A stretch of DNA of 64,000 bases, taken from positions 288,001 through 352,000 of the forward strand of contig JAJYUZ010000002.1 in the NCBI GenBank assembly GCA_021792255.1, read 5' to 3'. Within the stretch, counting starts at the first letter, position 1; each line of letters starts with the position of its first letter. The position numbers and the translations under genes were made by a program. The DNA comes from Thermoplasmata archaeon (GTDB lineage Archaea; Thermoplasmatota; Thermoplasmata; Thermoplasmatales; GCA-001856825). The notes beneath the pieces were generated by a model. It worked only from the letters and a program-made list of their open reading frames with translations, made no database searches and was not told where the DNA came from. Below are positions 1,889 to 32,576 of the stretch, piece after piece.

Positions 1889-3273
1889 GCATCGACCTCT
1901 TCTCGGTAAACTCGGTATGTCTCATCGGCGCTTCACGAGAAGAAGGCAAAGTAGGGAGTATAATACTGAAGAACCTGAAGAGAAGTTTCAAGGGAGAAAT
2001 TTTGCTAGTTCATCCGACCGCGGATGAAATAGATGGAATCAAGTGTTTCAGGAACGTAGAGGAGATACCCCACAAGATTGATCTTGGGATCATCTCACTT
2101 CCATCCAAGAAGGCAGTCGATGCAGTCAAATCTCTATCGGTAAAAGGATGCAAGATATGCATACCCGTTGCCGGCGGGTTTGGGGAACAGGGAGAAGAAG
2201 GAAAGCAACTAGAAATGGTAATGAAAGAGTTGGCCTCAAAGTATGGGTCCAGAATAATCGGACCTAATTGTGTTGGCGTCATAATTCCGAGGATAGGACT
2301 TAACACCGCCTTGACCAGTGAGGAGAAGAGCAGGTTTCCTTCCGATGGTCCCGTTGGATTTGTTTCTCAGAGCGGCGCACTGGGGCTGCTGACGATAGAC
2401 GAATTTTCCGATTTCGGAGTAGGGTTTTCATCTTTTATTTCGCTGGGTAACGAAATAGACGTAGACGAAACGGATGCAATTGAGACATTGGGAATGGACG
2501 ATGGAACAAAGTCCATTGCCCTTTACATAGAGAAGATTGCAAGAATAGATGACTTCCTGAAAGCGTGCAAGAAAGTCTCTCCGAGCAAAGGCATAGTCAC
2601 GCTCAAGGGTGGACAGACAGATTCTGGGAACAGAGCGACTTCACTCCACACGGGCTCACTTCTCAAGACAAGTTTTTCTCTAAACGGTATTTTCAGGCAA
2701 AATGGAATTATACAGGCGTCAAATGAAATAGAACTGATGGATTACGCGTCCGTATTAGCGCTTGGGAAACCAATATGGGGAAAGAGAGTAGCAGTAGTCT
2801 CCTCTGCAGGAGGAGTAGGCGTGATCGCCACAGATACGCTAGAAAACCAGGGCTTCAAGGTGGGCAGAACCTCAGACGAACTTGCGTCTGAGATAAGGTC
2901 TAAAATCTCCCCGATTGGTTCGCCTTATAACCCAATTGATATGACCGCCGAAGCTACCAACTTCCAGTATGAAAGCGTGATTAATCAAATAGACAAATCC
3001 GGCGAATTCGATTCAATTTTAGCTTTTGTTTTGTTCCAGACGTTTGGGGTCACTGAGGATATCATCGAATTTCTGAAAAGTTACAACAAGACAGGGAATA
3101 CTCCTATCGTGATTGGAGCAGTGGGGGGAGAATACACGAGGAAAACAATGAGGAAGATGATCGAGAACGGAGTTCCAACGTATCCATCAATTTCAAGAAG
3201 CGTTGCCGCTCTAAAAACTCTGGAGGAAAGGGGAGAGTACCTTAGGAGATTCGAAAATGCCAGTAGTTCCTGA
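1885..3273 (+). CDS. acdA: Acetate/acyl-CoA ligase (ADP-forming) alpha subunit
   Basis: CoA-binding IGAS...GKVG, IIGPNCVG, SQSGALG, SLHTG phospho-His, NPIDMT. Confidence 0.9.
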   Translation: MSIDLFSVNSVCLIGASREEGKVGSIILKNLKRSFKGEILLVHPTADEIDGIKCFRNVEEIPHKIDLGIISLPSKKAVDAVKSLSVKGCKICIPVAGGFGEQGEEGKQLEMVMKELASKYGSRIIGPNCVGVIIPRIGLNTALTSEEKSRFPSDGPVGFVSQSGALGLLTIDEFSDFGVGFSSFISLGNEIDVDETDAIETLGMDDGTKSIALYIEKIARIDDFLKACKKVSPSKGIVTLKGGQTDSGNRATSLHTGSLLKTSFSLNGIFRQNGIIQASNEIELMDYASVLALGKPIWGKRVAVVSSAGGVGVIATDTLENQGFKVGRTSDELASEIRSKISPIGSPYNPIDMTAEATNFQYESVINQIDKSGEFDSILAFVLFQTFGVTEDIIEFLKSYNKTGNTPIVIGAVGGEYTRKTMRKMIENGVPTYPSISRSVAALKTLEERGEYLRRFENASSS

Positions 3274-3862
3274 ATTGGAATTCAAAACTATGCTAGATAA
3301 GATGGGCTTCCACCAACCAAAGCGCTTCTTGATAAACGACCGGGAGGATTACAAGGGAGAATTTCCCTCAGTCCTCAAAGTTAGTTCGGAAACAATAACT
3401 CACAAAACAGAGATCGGAGCAGTGGTTGGAGACATCAAGACAAGACAGGACTTCAAGGAAGTTCTGAAGGATATGAAGAGAAAGTTTCCGGGGGAAACAC
3501 TTTATGCAGAAGAAATGGCTAAGAAAGGAGTTGAGCTCATTATTGGGCTCATAAAGGATCCGATGTTCGGAAAGCTCTTGTTATTTGGAGTGGGCGGTTT
3601 CTATTCAGAGCTCATAAGGGACGTGACATTTAAGAGAGTTCCAATAGACAGATATGATGCTGAGGATCTTCTCGGAGAGTTGAAATTTAACAGAGTATTT
3701 GATGGCTACAGAGGCCACAAGGTAAACAAGGAAATCCTGATAGACCTCCTCCTGAAAATCTCAGATTTTTCTATCAAGAATGAGTTCTCGCAGATAGATT
3801 TCAACCCAGTTTTTCTGTACGAGGACGGGTACCTTATCATAGATGCCAAATTGGTAGTTTAG
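3257..3862 (+). CDS. acdB: Acetate/acyl-CoA ligase (ADP-forming) beta (ATP-grasp) subunit
   Basis: HKTEIGAV, ELIIG..DPMFG..FGVGG, DFNPV; overlaps acdA. Confidence 0.85.
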   Translation: MPVVPELEFKTMLDKMGFHQPKRFLINDREDYKGEFPSVLKVSSETITHKTEIGAVVGDIKTRQDFKEVLKDMKRKFPGETLYAEEMAKKGVELIIGLIKDPMFGKLLLFGVGGFYSELIRDVTFKRVPIDRYDAEDLLGELKFNRVFDGYRGHKVNKEILIDLLLKISDFSIKNEFSQIDFNPVFLYEDGYLIIDAKLVV

Positions 3863-26948: not shown

Positions 26949-29413
26949 CCTACAGCACCGTACTTGTTCATCTCTAATTTCACTAGCTTGTTGAATTCTA
27001 TGGAATATTCAAGCGGTATTTCCTTGAGCACATCGTCAAGGAAACCAAGCACGATCAGTGATCTGGCATCTTCCTCCCTGATTCCTCTGCTCATGAGATA
27101 GTCAACCTGGTCCTCAGAGATCTTGCCCACCGAAGCCTCGTGCGAGAACGACGCACTTTCCTCCAGTATTTCGTTATGGGGGTAAGTGTTGCTCTTCGAT
27201 ATGTCGTCCAGAATGAGGGCATCGCACTGCACAGATGCCTTGGAATTGTAAGCACCAGGATTAATTCTCAACTGTCCCCTGTAGACGGACATTCCACCCT
27301 TGCCGGATATGCTCTTGGCTACCACCTTTGAGCTGGTGTGCGGCGCAGCGTGAACGACTTTTGCACCATTATCTTTCCACACAGGTCCGATTCCAAGGGC
27401 GACGTTGAGATTCGAGGTGCTTGCGTATTCTCCCCTCAAAATTGATGACGGATAAGTCATCGTTATCTTTGAGCCAAGGGAACCCTGTACCCATTCCATC
27501 CTCCCGTTTGCCTCCACCCATGACCTCTTTGTCGGTCCGTTGATGATGTTGTCTGACCAGTTCTGAACCGATGTATATCTTACTTTCCCTCCGTTTTTCA
27601 CATACACTTCAACAATAGCCGCGTGAAGCGAGTATTGACTATAAGTAGGGGCGGTACAATTGTGGACAGCGAATCCCTTCACCAGGTAGGAGTTCTGATT
27701 GCTGACCTCGAGGTTGTAGACCTTGTCCTTGAATCTTTCCCTAATTATCTTTCTTATCGGCACATAAAAATTATTTCCAACCTTCCGTGCCTGTGAGAAT
27801 CGTCCATCTTTTGTGTACTTTAATACGTACACCTTTCTGAGCTTCTTAAAGGAAATATTTGCGAAGAACCCGTTTCTCGCAATAATTTCTTGGAACTGGA
27901 ACGCTAGCAACTCGCTGGAAGTTGACGCCTTAACTGCATCGGATTTTAATGATCCATCAGTGCTATTGGTGCCCCCTTCTCCGATATAATTTTCAAATAG
28001 GATCTTCTGTTTCTCAGGGGGAAGTTCCATGATGACTTTTGAGAGTTTTTTCACCGTGTCTCCATTTCCAACGTGGGTCTGGCATAGATCTATCAGCTTC
28101 TGAGAGTGAGAGGTTACAGTCCATTTACCGTCCGCATTCTCCGATATACTTGCTTCTTCTCCCAAAGATCTTGTGAGTTCATAAAGCTCGGTGGCCATTT
28201 TCCTTTCTTTCGGAGACTTGCCAAAGCTTAAGACGAGCTCTCCTGCCTCCCTTACCTCGTTGTAGCGTATTGATCCCCTGGAAGCATACACACCCAGTAC
28301 TATTAGCAGTTCTGGAGTAAACTTGCTGTCGTCTCGGGATCCGGTAGGAGCAACATAAACGATGAAGTCCCCTTCTTCCAGCTTCTCTGCTCTTATGTAG
28401 TCGGGCTTGGCAGAAATTAGCTTCTGCATCGACAGGACTGACGTCCAGCCATTTCCAAGTTTTCTCGCGGTGACTACTGAAGCTCTCTTTATTGCAAGCA
28501 CTGGATGTTCGACCGTAAGTCTGAATGCATTGCCTCTTGAAGAGGGAACGAACGTTAGCATAGTTCCATCGTAGGGTCTCACGAAAGTTCTGGTTACGTT
28601 TGAGCTTTCTCCCGAGTGCGTCATCACATTCTCGGACACTCCAACTGCGCTAATGGGAACGAACGAGTCACCCTTGCTAACGAGCTCTTCTGCGGGCAAA
28701 CAGCCCTCGATATAATGCACAGACCCTCCTGGTTCAGAAATGATCATCGTCCTTTCAAACTGACCTTCAAGTGCCCCGTTCATTCTAAAGTAGGCCTGGA
28801 CGGGAAGATCGAGATGAACTCCCCTCGGGACGTACAGAAATGAGCCACCAGACCATACTGCCGTGTTCAAAGCAGCAAACTTATTATCCGATGGTGGGAC
28901 CACTTTCCCGAAGTGTTCCCTGACTATATCTGGATGCTTCTGGACGGCGCTATCCATGTCCATGAAGATCACACCTTTGTCTTCCCACTGCTTCTTCAAT
29001 CTTGAGTAGACGCCCTCTGATTGCAGCTGGGCAACGGATCCGGCCAGGTACTTCTTCTCCATCTCCGGTACTCCCAACTTGTCAAAGGTATCTTTTATCT
29101 CTTTGGGGACTTCCTCCCAATTGTTTGCCTTTCTGTCCTCGGGTCTTATATAATAAGTAAGGTCATCAAAATTCAGTTCTGAAAGATCAGGGCCCCAAGT
29201 AGGAACGGGCTTTGAAAAGAATATTTCAAGTGCTTTCAGTCTGATGTTTTTCATCCATTCGGGTTCCTTTTTCTCCCTCGACATCTCCTCTACGACGCTT
29301 CTGCTCAGACCCTTCTGTGCTTGATAAGCTGGTTTCAAATTAGTGGTGAAATCGTACTTAATCTCGTTCAGTTTCTTGACTTCATCAATCTCATCTTCAT
29401 TCAATCTTTGCAC
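26945..29413 (-). CDS. sufB: Fe-S assembly protein SufB containing an intein
   Basis: DNKFAALNTAVWSGGSF, GQFERT, HYIEG|...|CTAP, SVQNWS, HEASVGK. Confidence 0.95.
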   Translation of the reverse strand: MQRLNEDEIDEVKKLNEIKYDFTTNLKPAYQAQKGLSRSVVEEMSREKKEPEWMKNIRLKALEIFFSKPVPTWGPDLSELNFDDLTYYIRPEDRKANNWEEVPKEIKDTFDKLGVPEMEKKYLAGSVAQLQSEGVYSRLKKQWEDKGVIFMDMDSAVQKHPDIVREHFGKVVPPSDNKFAALNTAVWSGGSFLYVPRGVHLDLPVQAYFRMNGALEGQFERTMIISEPGGSVHYIEGCLPAEELVSKGDSFVPISAVGVSENVMTHSGESSNVTRTFVRPYDGTMLTFVPSSRGNAFRLTVEHPVLAIKRASVVTARKLGNGWTSVLSMQKLISAKPDYIRAEKLEEGDFIVYVAPTGSRDDSKFTPELLIVLGVYASRGSIRYNEVREAGELVLSFGKSPKERKMATELYELTRSLGEEASISENADGKWTVTSHSQKLIDLCQTHVGNGDTVKKLSKVIMELPPEKQKILFENYIGEGGTNSTDGSLKSDAVKASTSSELLAFQFQEIIARNGFFANISFKKLRKVYVLKYTKDGRFSQARKVGNNFYVPIRKIIRERFKDKVYNLEVSNQNSYLVKGFAVHNCTAPTYSQYSLHAAIVEVYVKNGGKVRYTSVQNWSDNIINGPTKRSWVEANGRMEWVQGSLGSKITMTYPSSILRGEYASTSNLNVALGIGPVWKDNGAKVVHAAPHTSSKVVAKSISGKGGMSVYRGQLRINPGAYNSKASVQCDALILDDISKSNTYPHNEILEESASFSHEASVGKISEDQVDYLMSRGIREEDARSLIVLGFLDDVLKEIPLEYSIEFNKLVKLEMNKYGAVG
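27659..28702 (-). mobile_element. SufB intein (348 aa) with degenerate LAGLIDADG-type endonuclease region
   Basis: Starts CLPAEE, block B LTVEHP, block F VYNLEV, ends VHN followed by extein C; removal restores YIEGCTAP. Confidence 0.93.
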
Positions 29414-30164
29414 TCATCTCGCCTCCCTTGTAATACTCGTAACCTCTCTCTTCGATCACTTTTGCCAGGTCTCCATTTCCGCTTTCAGCTATCCGGCCAT
29501 TTATCAGGACATGAACGAAATCAGGTTTAATGTAATCGAGAATCCTCTGGTAATGCGTAATTATGATTATTCCTGCGCCATTTTCCTTTGCCCTAGCAAT
29601 CGCTTTTGAAACTACCCTGAGCGCATCAACGTCAAGTCCCGAATCGATTTCGTCCAGTATGATGAACTTCGGTTTGAGAATCAACATTTGGAGGGCTTCC
29701 ATCCTCTTTTTCTCCCCTCCAGACAGGCCATCGTTGAGCCCCCTTTCTATGAATGAGCTATCTAGGCCAAAGTACTTCAGAAGTTCCTTCACTTCTTCAA
29801 CGAACTTCTTGTACTCCAGTTTTTCGTCAGGATGGAGAGAAGAATAAGCCGTCCTCAGATAATTGATGAATCTCAGGCCCTGTACCGAGACGGGTTCCTG
29901 GAATGCCACGAAAAGGCCAGCTCTCGCTCTTTCGTACACCTGGAGATCTTTTAGATTTACTTCATTTATTAAGAGATCGCCGCTGTTCACTTTGTACCTC
30001 ACACTTCCGACCACCGTATGGGCTAGGGTGCTTTTTCCCGTGCCATTGGGTCCCATAAGTGCGTGGACCTCTCCGGATTTGACGGTAATCGTAACGTCCT
30101 TCAGTATTTCCTTGTCTCCTACCGAGACACTCAGGTTCTTTATAATGAGAACATTAGGAACCAT
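29397..30164 (-). CDS. sufC: Fe-S assembly ATPase SufC
   Basis: MGPNGTGKST, AFQEP, LSGGEKKR, DEIDSGLDVDAL, ITHYQRIL. Confidence 0.95.
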   Translation of the reverse strand: MVPNVLIIKNLSVSVGDKEILKDVTITVKSGEVHALMGPNGTGKSTLAHTVVGSVRYKVNSGDLLINEVNLKDLQVYERARAGLFVAFQEPVSVQGLRFINYLRTAYSSLHPDEKLEYKKFVEEVKELLKYFGLDSSFIERGLNDGLSGGEKKRMEALQMLILKPKFIILDEIDSGLDVDALRVVSKAIARAKENGAGIIIITHYQRILDYIKPDFVHVLINGRIAESGNGDLAKVIEERGYEYYKGGEMSAKIE

Positions 30165-30253
30165 TGTAATTTGTATGGAATGATGATATTTAAACATTTT
30201 TTACTGTCTAAAGTAATAAAAGTTAAATAGAGTATTTAATTCCCTTCAGTGGT

Positions 30254-30877
30254 ATGGAAGAAATAACCACTCTAGGCAGTAGCAAACGGAGGATACTAGA
30301 GGAACTTCTGGAGAAGCCTAGAGTAATTTATGAGCTTTCAGATAAACTCAGCATTAGAAATAATGCGGTGAGAGAACACCTGACTATGCTTGAAAGCATG
30401 GGATACGTAGAGTCCAAATTCGTAAAGACAAAAATTGGAAGGCCAAAGAAGACCTATAGAATCTCTGCAGACGGGATGAAGTTGTTCCCAAAAAAGTACG
30501 ACCTTCTGCTAAAAATTCTGCTCGACGAACTCACTACAGAAAAGGGGACTATATGGGTAAAAGATTTCTTGAAGAGAGCTGGTGAAAGGATCGTCAAAGA
30601 GGACGGTTCCAAGTCAAAAGACATAAAAGAACTATTGACCTTTTATAACAACCTTGGATGCATGGCCACTGCAGTGGAGAGGGACGGCAACATAGTCATA
30701 AAGAGGAACAATTGCATTTATTATTCAATGGCCCTGGACACAAACAATGTCTTCTGCGGAACCTTCGAAGACGCGTTAATAGAATCAATGCTTCCTTCCT
30801 ACAAGGTAATCAAGAAAGACACGGTTTCGAAGGACAAGTACGACTGTGAGATCACGCTGTCAAAATCAGAATCGTAA
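30254..30877 (+). CDS. SufR-like HTH transcriptional regulator
   Basis: AVREHL..LE..GYV...GRPKKTY wHTH plus C-terminal NC..C..C; divergent from the suf operon. Confidence 0.75.
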   Translation: MEEITTLGSSKRRILEELLEKPRVIYELSDKLSIRNNAVREHLTMLESMGYVESKFVKTKIGRPKKTYRISADGMKLFPKKYDLLLKILLDELTTEKGTIWVKDFLKRAGERIVKEDGSKSKDIKELLTFYNNLGCMATAVERDGNIVIKRNNCIYYSMALDTNNVFCGTFEDALIESMLPSYKVIKKDTVSKDKYDCEITLSKSES

Positions 30878-30912
30878 ATATTTATCTCCCCTGTCGTATT
30901 ACATCACAAGAA

Positions 30913-31959
30913 ATGCTCACGGTAATAGAAACTTTTTACTCTATCGAAGGTGAAGGGCCCTTTATCGGCGTTCCCACGTTCTTCATCAGGCTCTCAGGAT
31001 GCAACCTGAGGTGTTCTTGGACACCAGTTGGTTCGACCAGGATCCTGATGAGCGATCGTAGCTGGAAGCTCGCTAAGGACATCACCGTCGGAGACGTTGT
31101 TCTGGGATTCGAAGGAGAGCATTTCAAGAAATCACGGGTCTTAAACACAGTCAAAACGAGGTCGGAAACGGTAAAGCTCACCATGGAGAGCGGTGGTACG
31201 ATTACGGTCACGCCTGAGCATCCCTTCTATTATCGGGGTTCAAAGACCAGAAGGGCGGATAGAACGATTGGTAAGACAATAAGAACCATAAACCAGGGGA
31301 AAACTGACCTTGAGTATAAGATAAATGGAGAGAATGATAAGGTCATAAAGATCGAGACAGCCGGCATCGCCGATATAAATCATTTTGAGACCGAGACACA
31401 CAACTACATTTCTGAAGGCTACCTCTCCCACAACTGCGATACTAAGTACTCATATTCTGGGGGTGAAAAGATGACGATCGAAAGTCTGGTGGAAGAAGCA
31501 GCCTCATATGGGGCAAAGTACGTCTGCCTCACCGGAGGGGAGCCTCTCTTGCAAAAAGAAGTCTATCCCTTGATGTACAAACTTCTCGACAAGGGATACA
31601 AGATTATCCTAGAGACGAGTGGGTCCATCTCTCTTGAGGATGTTCCGACGGACGACAACATGATAATTTCGATGGACATCAAAACGCCTTCTTCCAACAT
31701 GGTAGAGCACAACGTGTATCAGAACATCGAGCTGCTGGCCGAAAAAGACTATCTAAAGTTTGTGATTGTTGATGAAAAGGACTATTCGTTTTCTAAGTCC
31801 ATAATAGAGAAATACCCATTTGACGGTGAAACAATCTTTCAACCTGAAGGAGGGAAAAACTTGAAGGAGCTAACTGAAAAAGTATTAAAAGAACGATTAA
31901 ATGTCAGAGTACTGCCGCAACTGCATAAATTAATTTGGGGGGACAAAAGAGGAGTATGA
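30913..31959 (+). CDS. queE: 7-carboxy-7-deazaguanine synthase-like radical SAM enzyme containing a mini-intein
   Basis: FYSIEGEG..G.PT.FIRLSGCNLRCSW|CDT, LTGGEPLLQ, ETSG, DIKTPSS, PQLHKLIW. Confidence 0.88.
   Translation: MLTVIETFYSIEGEGPFIGVPTFFIRLSGCNLRCSWTPVGSTRILMSDRSWKLAKDITVGDVVLGFEGEHFKKSRVLNTVKTRSETVKLTMESGGTITVTPEHPFYYRGSKTRRADRTIGKTIRTINQGKTDLEYKINGENDKVIKIETAGIADINHFETETHNYISEGYLSHNCDTKYSYSGGEKMTIESLVEEAASYGAKYVCLTGGEPLLQKEVYPLMYKLLDKGYKIILETSGSISLEDVPTDDNMIISMDIKTPSSNMVEHNVYQNIELLAEKDYLKFVIVDEKDYSFSKSIIEKYPFDGETIFQPEGGKNLKELTEKVLKERLNVRVLPQLHKLIWGDKRGV
31021..31434 (+). mobile_element. QueE mini-intein (138 aa, N-terminal Thr)
   Basis: TPVGSTRILMSD (block A), TVTPEHPF (block B), FETETHNYISEGYLSHN followed by extein C; removal restores CNLRCSWCDT. 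Confidence 0.9.
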
Positions 31960-32576
31960 TGGGGCAGGAATACACTGACGAGGATGGAGAGATAGCGACC
32001 AAGATGGCTAGGAGAGCCATCGAGGAGTACATTGACATTAAATTAATTGTAAAAAACAGTTATGGAGGAAAGTTCGTCGAGAAGAGGGGGGTATTCACTA
32101 CACTCTCCAGTGCGTCAGGCGAATTGAGGGGGTGTGTTGGCTTTCCTGAACCCGTATATCCGCTTGGAGAAGCGGTCATCAAGAGCGCGATCTCAGCAGC
32201 CGTCAACGACCCGAGATTTGCCCCCGTCACGAAGGAAGAAATGAACGACATCATAGTCGAAGTTTCGCTTCTCAGCAAACCGAATGTCTTGGAGTCAAAA
32301 AGCAGGAAAGATCTTCCATCTATGATCAAAGTGGGCCGAGACGGCCTGATCGCGGAGAGGGAAGCTTATTCCGGTCTTCTACTCCCGCAGGTTGCGGTGG
32401 ATGAGAAGATGGACCAAAAAGGATTCCTCAATGCAGTATGTTGGAAGGCAGGAATGGAACCCGACTGCTGGAAAGACGGGGACACTTCAATTTCTACTTT
32501 TACTGCAGAAATATTTTACGAAGTAGAACCTCGCGGGCCAATATTCAGGAAAGTGCTCTCTGTGGAGAAAAGTTAA
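31956..32576 (+). CDS. AMMECR1-domain protein (TIGR00296-like)
   Basis: GVFTTL, LRGCVG, DPRF, EVSLLS, GLLLPQV, CWKAG. Confidence 0.9.
   Translation: MMGQEYTDEDGEIATKMARRAIEEYIDIKLIVKNSYGGKFVEKRGVFTTLSSASGELRGCVGFPEPVYPLGEAVIKSAISAAVNDPRFAPVTKEEMNDIIVEVSLLSKPNVLESKSRKDLPSMIKVGRDGLIAEREAYSGLLLPQVAVDEKMDQKGFLNAVCWKAGMEPDCWKDGDTSISTFTAEIFYEVEPRGPIFRKVLSVEKS

Follow-up and report, generated by a model that had tools for sequence, protein, structure and literature searches.

The queE gene of the stretch of DNA analysed here (64,000 nucleotides of contig JAJYUZ010000002.1 of a Thermoplasmata archaeon, hereafter the window) is interrupted by a mini-intein of 138 residues whose first residue is a threonine (Thr1) and whose block F has a histidine (His121) at its fourth position (F:4). 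Judging from comparison of the sequence with those of its relatives, the element is a real, selected and very probably active mini-intein with a natural threonine at its start. Its insertion site is ordinary; what is of interest is the pair formed by Thr1 and the histidine at F:4. We consider it rather probable that the only queE gene of this Thermoplasmatales host carries a functional mini-intein, maintained by vertical descent, and that Thr1 serves as N-terminal nucleophile in splicing of the class 1 type.

The insert separates W36 of the host protein from the third cluster cysteine of the radical S-adenosylmethionine (SAM) motif CxxxCxxC, and the junctions read CNLRCSW↓T...SHN↓CDT (arrows mark splice junctions; coordinates are collected in Table 1). 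The initial annotation of this DNA had placed an insert of 138 aa at 31021..31434, between the W and the C of the QueE motif, and these limits proved right to the base. It had also listed blocks A (TPVGSTRILM), B (TPEHP) and G (SHN), a first residue Thr encoded by ACA and followed by Pro, a block F reading INHF with His at F:4, and an insert without cysteine; each of these is seen in the sequence, the last with a count of 0 Cys. Homologues devoid of intein are 210 aa long, are up to 87% identical over the exteins (87% over the C-extein in the case of P0016) and read CNLRC(E/T/K)W↓CD(T/S) at the insertion point, with no gap. The cysteine that follows the insert (C175) is invariant in 27 of the 27 aligned QueE sequences. 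Since W36 and C175 are invariant and the intein-less alleles are gap-free at this point, the boundaries of the insert are set by the host protein itself, and the cluster motif CNLRCSWC is complete only once the insert has been removed. The host protein is best read as a QueE-family enzyme. The best NCBIfam matches of the precursor are QueE models, TIGR04349 being matched in two stretches at an E-value of 1.8e-61 (207.5 bits, under the cut-off of 300, as is the intein-less P0016 with 227.6 bits), and residues 1-36 together with the last 174 span the QueE models from end to end. The GC content of the intein (0.473 overall and 0.572 at third codon positions) does not differ from that of the N-extein (0.481 and 0.583), so that there is no compositional mark of recent arrival, which fits a long residence.

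A search of 1.84 billion cluster representatives with the insert (phmmer) gave 509 matches at E<=1e-3, and in all of the 149 matched proteins that we have inspected the matching part was an intein or Hint region. With the NCBIfam model of the intein N-terminal region (TIGR01445, cut-off 24.5), the insert alone gave 26.5 bits and the entire protein 24.1. We modelled the insert, flanked by three residues at either end, with AlphaFold2 from an alignment of 40 rows, and obtained a mean predicted local distance difference test score (pLDDT) of 90.7 and a predicted template modelling score of 0.85. When compared with the PDB by Foldseek, this model gave 64 matches at E<=0.001, with template modelling (TM) scores of 0.75-0.86 to the NpuDnaB, SspDnaB, DnaE, gp41-1 and RecA inteins, the best E-value (5e-10) being that of the BIL2 domain of Tetrahymena. 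The latter was also all that a sequence search of the PDB with the insert matched (4 distinct sequences, E ~0.005). A model of the full precursor was set aside (mean pLDDT 68.3, with intein residues 101-182 below 50). The insert is thus modelled as a Hint domain with the class 1 blocks A, B, F and G. This fold accounts for all 138 residues and no endonuclease domain was found in the insert, as the initial annotation had held.

That the ACA at 31021 is an artefact of sequencing or assembly can be regarded as refuted. The contigs of four runs from three studies, labelled as mine tailings, mine drainage and sediment metagenomes, show 0 differences over positions 30850-32000 (three of these runs may be the assembly's own source and the fourth spans the stretch in two pieces), and no other codon appears at 31021 in these contigs of independent assemblies. 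Threonine is also encoded at this place in nine more loci, which come from other species and metagenomes. There was no RNA run among the runs listed for the stretch.

The threonine is conserved throughout the clade of related QueE inteins. It is the first intein residue in 11 of the 11 full-length proteins, the window's included, the other ten being 69-98% identical to it overall, and the possibility that homologous queE inteins would all start with Cys or Ser, raised at the outset as what would speak against a natural Thr1, does not hold. Two more members, P0018 and P0019, are N-terminally truncated intein-bearing fragments that preserve INHFETETHNY...SHN↓CDT. At the DNA level we have compared 10 distinct loci, namely that of the window, five from species genomes and four from metagenome contigs. 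Five duplicate loci on genome contigs, which are the same records, were left out of this count, and the genome-contig loci were recovered with an alignment as query, a single-protein query having matched none there. All four threonine codons are used at residue 1 (ACA 2, ACC 3, ACT 4, ACG 1). The His of F:4 is encoded by CAT in five loci and by CAC in five, and Cys+1 by TGC in seven and TGT in three; likewise, the histidines of B:10 and G:6 and the asparagine of G:7 each show two codons and a single residue. In the inteins of the six species genomes, which share 49-66% identity with that of the window, 54 of 138 positions are invariant, including all four blocks, and the only histidines invariant in the clade are 67, 121, 127 and 137. 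The ratio of nonsynonymous to synonymous substitution rates (dN/dS) of the intein is 0.06-0.19 where dS can be estimated, most pairs being saturated at synonymous sites; for the pair L012/L013 it is 0.107 in the intein and 0.061 in the extein. By these comparisons the intein is under purifying selection, with the exteins under tighter constraint, and Thr1 is kept by selection and is not an error.

The same data bear on the possibility that the intein is dead or decaying, i.e., that it does not splice and that queE is a pseudogene or the organism independent of QueE. A non-canonical first residue, a Pfam intein score under the threshold and the small genomes of the lineage could be expected of such a case. 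Nevertheless, we consider it very improbable. All 10 loci preserve an open reading frame, among intein-bearing alleles the proportion of nonsynonymous differences in the exteins is 0.025-0.12 compared to 0.32-0.9 for synonymous ones, dN/dS of the intein is ~0.1, and every catalytic residue has been retained through synonymous changes. Furthermore, the interrupted gene is the sole queE of the window's genome (1.59 Mb, 93.6% complete), where QueC, QueD/PTPS and two genes of the TGT family are intact. On these data the host needs the spliced QueE product. Within the family (25 genomes including that of the window) a queE match was found in 24. Six of the 25, all of the window's genus, have an interrupted queE, which is the sole copy in 6 of 6; 17 have an uninterrupted one; one shows just a fragment, at the edge of a contig; and the genome with no queE match is 73% complete.

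A way to see what is peculiar to this clade is to align it with inteins that begin with cysteine. For this we have used an alignment of 40 rows (A2) containing 10 clade members, 7 of the 12 Cys1 inteins found at the same site of QueE and 23 of 45 eligible representatives. The column of residue 1 holds Thr in 10/10 clade members and Cys in 30/30 of the others. The register is ungapped, with Thr1 in the Cys1 column and Thr6, Ile8, Leu9, Met10 and VGD24-25 aligned, and His67 (B:10) is invariant in all 40 sequences. The assignment of His121 to F:4 follows from block F sequences such as VFDIEV, VFDLTV and TYDISV, which place Asp in that column. Asp at this position is common in class 1 inteins, although not obligatory. 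The column has His in 10/10 clade members and in 0/30 relatives (Asn 24, Asp 3, Ser 1, Ile 1, a tally that names 29), so that the expectation of Asp as the usual residue was right about the column and not about the relatives, which mostly have Asn. Ten residues are clade-specific invariants, each present in no more than 2 of the 30 relatives (T1, P2, A18, T46, R47, R78, A79, R81, I119 and H121), and T1, H121, T46, R78 and R81 are present in none of these Cys1 relatives. An alternative register, in which phmmer paired TP(V)G of the window's intein with the TPAG found just after Cys1 in P0159 and P0220, would equate W36 with Cys1 or imply that Cys1 has been deleted; it is ruled out by the ungapped register and the invariant extein residue W36. 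P0159 (706 aa) contains, at residues 163-316, the nearest full-length relative of the intein outside QueE (37% identity). Its end is like that of the window's intein (GYLSHN↓CDT), its first residue is Cys (MF↓CTPAGT) and its F:4 residue Ser, and its host protein gave only a weak glycosyltransferase-like match.

Thr1 was not found outside the QueE clade in either of two censuses of Hint relatives. Among 216 N-terminal Hint stretches in 149 representatives, the first residue was C in 205, S in 5, T in 2 and Q, P, F and H in one each; both T cases and those with Q, H and F were one-residue offsets after a Cys. Extrapolation in 121 fetched loci gave 76 starts, of which 44 were C and 15 T. Nine of these T starts belong to the QueE clade. 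In the other six (L071, L080, L096, L097, L126 and L127) the TPxG of strand 2 had been aligned across a gap of ~10 residues, L071 being judged by its context, which is identical to that of L126. A search for homologues restricted to the region recovered eight proteins, all of the Thr1 clade, and no intermediate with Ser1 or Cys1.

The features of a class 1 intein that can be read from the sequence and the model are, with one exception, present: an in-frame insertion with uninterrupted alleles, a Hint fold, a Thr at residue 1, the Thr and His of block B and the HN↓C of block G. The exception is the Asp of F:4, replaced by His121. A class 2 intein (KlbA) lacks Ser, Thr and Cys at position 1, where this one has Thr. 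The Trp-Cys-Thr triplet of class 3 is absent (B:12 is Phe69, F:4 is His121 and G:5 is Ser136) and, as the initial annotation had argued, an intein without Cys is not class 3. In the class-1-type route that we favour, the product of translation is a precursor of 348 aa with the split motif C30-x3-C34-S-W, intein, C175. Folding of the Hint domain would bring together the W36-T37 and N174-C175 bonds, and O-gamma of Thr1 would attack the carbonyl of W36 in an N-to-O acyl shift, helped by the Thr and His of block B and probably by His121 as a base. The N-extein would then pass to the thiol of Cys+1, the oxyester becoming a branched thioester, and cyclisation of Asn138, assisted by His137, would free the intein. 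An S-to-N shift would rebuild the W-C peptide bond and thereby CNLRCSWCDT. Only at this point could the three cysteines bind the [4Fe-4S] cluster and QueE make 7-carboxy-7-deazaguanine for preQ0/archaeosine. The histidine at F:4 is possibly a helper of Thr1. A precedent for the hand-over from oxyester to thioester is provided by the GOS TerL intein, the one Ser1/Cys+1 intein cited in the pertinent passages of Pasch et al. 2023 (PMC10189870).

Several points weigh against this route. The chemistry is wholly inferred from sequence, and the conservation of a threonine is in itself no proof that it acts as a nucleophile. To pass the N-extein from the ester of a Thr to the thiol of a Cys is an energetically uphill step. 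The Pfam model Intein_splicing (PF14890) scores 24.9 bits, under its cut-off of 35.8. All members of the clade come from one genus-level lineage, so that the 11 Thr1 proteins represent one evolutionary origin and not 11 independent cases. Regarding the histidines, the Cys1 BIL2 domain of Tetrahymena (6y75) also has a His in the F:4 column (phmmer alignment), which indicates that a His there is not by itself a device specific to Thr, and the motif-NX His of Ser1 inteins has no invariant His counterpart in the Thr1 clade. The pairing of Ser1 with Cys+1 is described in the same passages of PMC10189870 as known only once.

Besides, a strong nucleophile such as Cys+1 would be able to attack directly in the manner of class 2, in which case Thr1 would merely stand by, retained for packing or for hydrogen bonds. 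This is the substance of a rival explanation that we rate as rather unlikely, in which Cys+1 attacks the W36-T37 bond, as in the Ala1 intein of KlbA, and Thr1 is maintained for geometry or hydrogen bonding. Cys+1 is indeed present and, as a ligand of the cluster, cannot change; the ester-to-thioester step of the class 1 route is unfavourable and its Ser1/Cys+1 analogue was reported once in the text cited above; and the active site has been remodelled at T1, P2 and H121. Tori et al. 2010 (PMC2807308) give class 2, in the sections concerned, no obvious sequence signature beyond the missing nucleophile. However, what defines that class is a position 1 devoid of Ser, Thr and Cys, and here a hydroxyl is present. 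Ser or Ala would be a single base away, yet Thr is found in 11/11 proteins despite inteins only 49-66% identical, and the Thr and His of block B, which serve the N-terminal acyl shift, are invariant. The initial annotation had named both a rare natural Thr1 intein and direct attack by Cys+1; its reading is supported here, the two routes looking alike to sequence analysis.

The initial annotation had put weight on the splitting of the CxxxCxxC motif by the intein. The site was confirmed, but it is not unusual in itself. Many metagenomic radical-SAM proteins have a Cys1 intein before the second or the third cysteine of the motif, and the motif appears, from these sequences, to be an intein hotspot. 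Two proteins, P0132 (869 aa) and P0224 (1402 aa), have two inteins within one CxxxCxxC, one inserted ahead of the second Cys (CNLA↓C or CNLR↓C) and the other ahead of the third (HN↓CTY↓C or N↓CSY↓C). The very site of the window's intein is also occupied by a Cys1 intein in 12 QueE proteins of a sister Thermoplasmata clade (P0027-P0058, P0113; 341-346 aa), with the identical insertion point CNLRCSW↓...HN↓CDT. These are of mini-intein size as well and share the TPEHP of block B, and differ by Cys1, by the VYNLT of block F (Asn at F:4) and by a THN end. They are just 21-26% identical to the window's intein and were not among the 150 best representatives matched by it, which makes them probably a separate lineage or invasion; their exteins form a separate, fully supported clade in the tree. 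Another intein within a radical-SAM enzyme is described by the NCBIfam model NF038136 (intein-containing Rv2578c-family radical SAM protein). It aligns with the window's protein across the junction between extein and intein (residues 28-107, profile positions 67-150, E 2.4e-9), although it represents a different radical-SAM family and the window's protein reaches 36.6 bits against a cut-off of 700.

The Cys1 inteins at this site suggest a reason why the threonine might be there. In 12 of the 12 same-site Cys1 QueE inteins the precursor reads CNLRCSW↓C, so that its motif is already complete, and the other radical-SAM inteins are alike in this; the Thr1 clade alone breaks the motif of the precursor. 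Thr1 could then be an adaptation to the site, under either chemistry, by which Thr1 and the His at F:4 avoid a trapping of the precursor by iron-sulphur clusters, metals or a Cys1-Cys+1 disulfide, or make splicing depend only on the free Cys+1. The organism comes, to judge by the run labels, from metal-rich mine waters, and inhibition of inteins by zinc is cited in the part of PMC8616854 that deals with it. Nevertheless, the argument is purely inferential, Cys1 inteins at such sites are common and evidently viable, and cytoplasmic metal levels are buffered, all of which leads us to regard this adaptation as quite improbable. We are doubtful too about a more specific proposal, which we put forward as a speculation, unlikely in its full extent. 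The pair Thr1/His-F:4 may constitute a mechanistic sub-type, in which the block F His would activate the Thr hydroxyl, much like the His base of serine/threonine hydrolases, before hand-over to a Cys that is an iron-sulphur ligand. The ancestor would have been a Cys1 intein, and the change would have come about because Cys1 recreates CxxxCxxC and would let metals, clusters or oxidation jam splicing, and splicing would be insulated from cluster insertion or ordered before it.

Regarding the history of the element, a tree of the exteins groups the alleles with the intein in a single well-supported clade of 25 rows, where they are intermixed with intein-less ones (P0018 and P0019 were first taken as intein-less and then relabelled, so that the original tallies overstate the changes). 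This pattern fits one acquisition followed by precise losses or by homing. A longer version of the Thr1 intein, of 316 aa, is found in P0008 (526 aa) and at L017:1510-2457 on a metagenome contig. Its extra insert of ~178 aa shows two LAGLIDADG-like motifs by eye (WLAGVIDG and YVAGMIDSSG), and Pfam detected no endonuclease family in P0008 at E<=0.1; it may represent a homing endonuclease that has diverged or is decaying. The window's genome contains two further inteins (loci L003-L005 and L007), both canonical and endonuclease-bearing, in the V-type ATPase subunit A (G000 contig C9 ~2065-3612, minus strand; GSGK↓CVTGD...LHN↓TVV) and in MCM (G000 contig C3 ~165681-166862, minus strand; GDPG↓CLIGD...SHN↓TAK). 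Both have Cys1 and Asp at F:4, from which it follows that Thr1 is not a genome-wide oddity.

In the mine-water runs there are also short contigs, 10- to 20-fold deeper, that match only positions 30906-30950 and 31876-31931, i.e., the extein ends, where they are 90-95% identical, and then diverge from the window. Commoner relatives with another queE allele, possibly intein-less, live in the same samples. Around queE, a gene for a SufC-like ABC ATPase (29397..30197, minus strand) is divergently oriented upstream, followed by an ArsR-type helix-turn-helix regulator (30254..30877, plus strand). The presence of an iron-sulphur assembly ATPase beside an iron-sulphur enzyme may be a coincidence. The downstream AMMECR1-family gene is listed at 31935..32576 with a TTG start, so that, in a different frame, it shares 25 bases with the end of queE; it may start just past the queE stop, at an in-frame ATG a few codons on (MMGQ). 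A scan of positions 30700-32100 for promoters and terminators gave signals no better than those of shuffled sequence.

Table 1. Position of the interrupted queE gene, its intein blocks and its junction residues in the window (numbers of intein residues start at Thr1; C30, C34, W36 and C175 are numbered in the precursor)
Feature	Position	Strand	Remarks
queE precursor gene	30913..31959	+	348 codons and stop; QueE-family radical-SAM enzyme with intein
N-extein, 36 aa	30913..31020	+	ends GC30NLRC34SW36; C30, C34 and W36 invariant in 27/27 aligned sequences
C30 codon	31000-31002	+	
C34 codon	31012-31014	+	
W36 (residue -1)	31018-31020	+	TGG; invariant in 27/27 aligned sequences
Mini-intein, 138 aa	31021..31434	+	Hint fold (predicted); 0 Cys; begins ACA (Thr), ends AAC (Asn)
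Block A, TPVGSTRILM	31021..31050	+	Thr1 codon ACA at 31021-31023; Thr1 and Pro2 clade-specific invariants
Block B, TPEHP	31210..31224	+	Thr64 is B:7 and His67 is B:10; both invariant in the clade
Block F, INHFETETHNY	31375..31407	+	His121 (F:4) at 31381-31383; His127 at 31399-31401
Block G, Ser136-His137-Asn138	31426..31434	+	penultimate His, terminal Asn; Asn138 codon AAC at 31432-31434
Cys+1 (C175)	31435-31437	+	TGC; predicted splice-junction nucleophile and third [4Fe-4S] ligand of mature CNLRCSWC
C-extein, 174 aa	31435..31956	+	remainder of the QueE radical-SAM domain; TIGR04349 6.4e-51, profile positions 36-209 of 210

A threonine at position 1 has long been admitted by the definition of class 1, which lists Ser1, Thr1 or Cys1 with no example of Thr1 in the passages where it is given (PMC5222942, PMC7765530), and the pertinent text of Tori et al. 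2010 (PMC2807308) states that a natural Thr1 intein had never been observed. In a literature search that covered mostly openly available papers, in their main text, we have found no published report of one, nor any paper dealing with an intein of QueE or of the radical-SAM motif. Here Thr1, unseen in nature according to that 2010 paper, is clade-wide, is under selection and co-varies with a His at F:4. Since it has been retained by evolution, it looks like a working case of a chemistry long held possible. Such a case would offer a natural system for the activation of a secondary alcohol in the N-to-O acyl shift and for the transfer from oxyester to thiol. A cysteine-free splicing domain of 138 residues, as predicted here, may serve where thiol chemistry, metals or oxidants interfere. 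It is also a clean case for asking whether inteins at cofactor-binding residues are mere parasites of conserved sites or act as well as gates of enzyme maturation.

Compared with known systems, the element is closest in general design to the class 1 mini-inteins (Npu and Ssp DnaB, Ssp and Npu DnaE, gp41-1, Mtu RecA). It shares with them the Hint fold (TM 0.75-0.86), the T..H of block B, the His of HNY in block F, the HN of block G followed by Cys+1, the in-frame position at a conserved functional site, the existence of intein-less alleles and a relative with an endonuclease-like insert. It differs by Thr1 instead of Cys or Ser, His at F:4 instead of Asp or Asn, Pro2 and the lack of any cysteine. 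The Ser1 inteins with motif NX, an extra histidine that is conserved in them (Pasch et al. 2023, PMC10189870, in the sections on this motif), likewise have at position 1 a hydroxyl nucleophile, which is what Thr1 is predicted to be, needing an extra His near the N-terminal junction. As compared by sequence with what those sections describe, the clade has Thr instead of Ser, lacks an invariant His between blocks A and B, and has its own His at F:4. The GOS TerL intein, within the same account (PMC10189870), combines as this one would an oxygen nucleophile at position 1 with Cys+1. That a threonine at position 1 can support splicing is shown by the Thr1 variant engineered in a Ser1 intein (PMC2807308, in the part devoted to it). 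The engineered variant has Ser/Thr chemistry downstream, whereas the Thr1 of the window is natural, selected and paired with Cys+1. The Hint domain of Tetrahymena BIL2 (PDB 6y75/6tmm) is the closest solved structure both by sequence and by Foldseek, and has a His in the column of His121. It is unlike the intein of the window in being a eukaryotic Cys1 BIL domain that, following the description given in the relevant passages of PMC8616854, forms an isopeptide bond between ubiquitin-like domains and has no enzyme as host.

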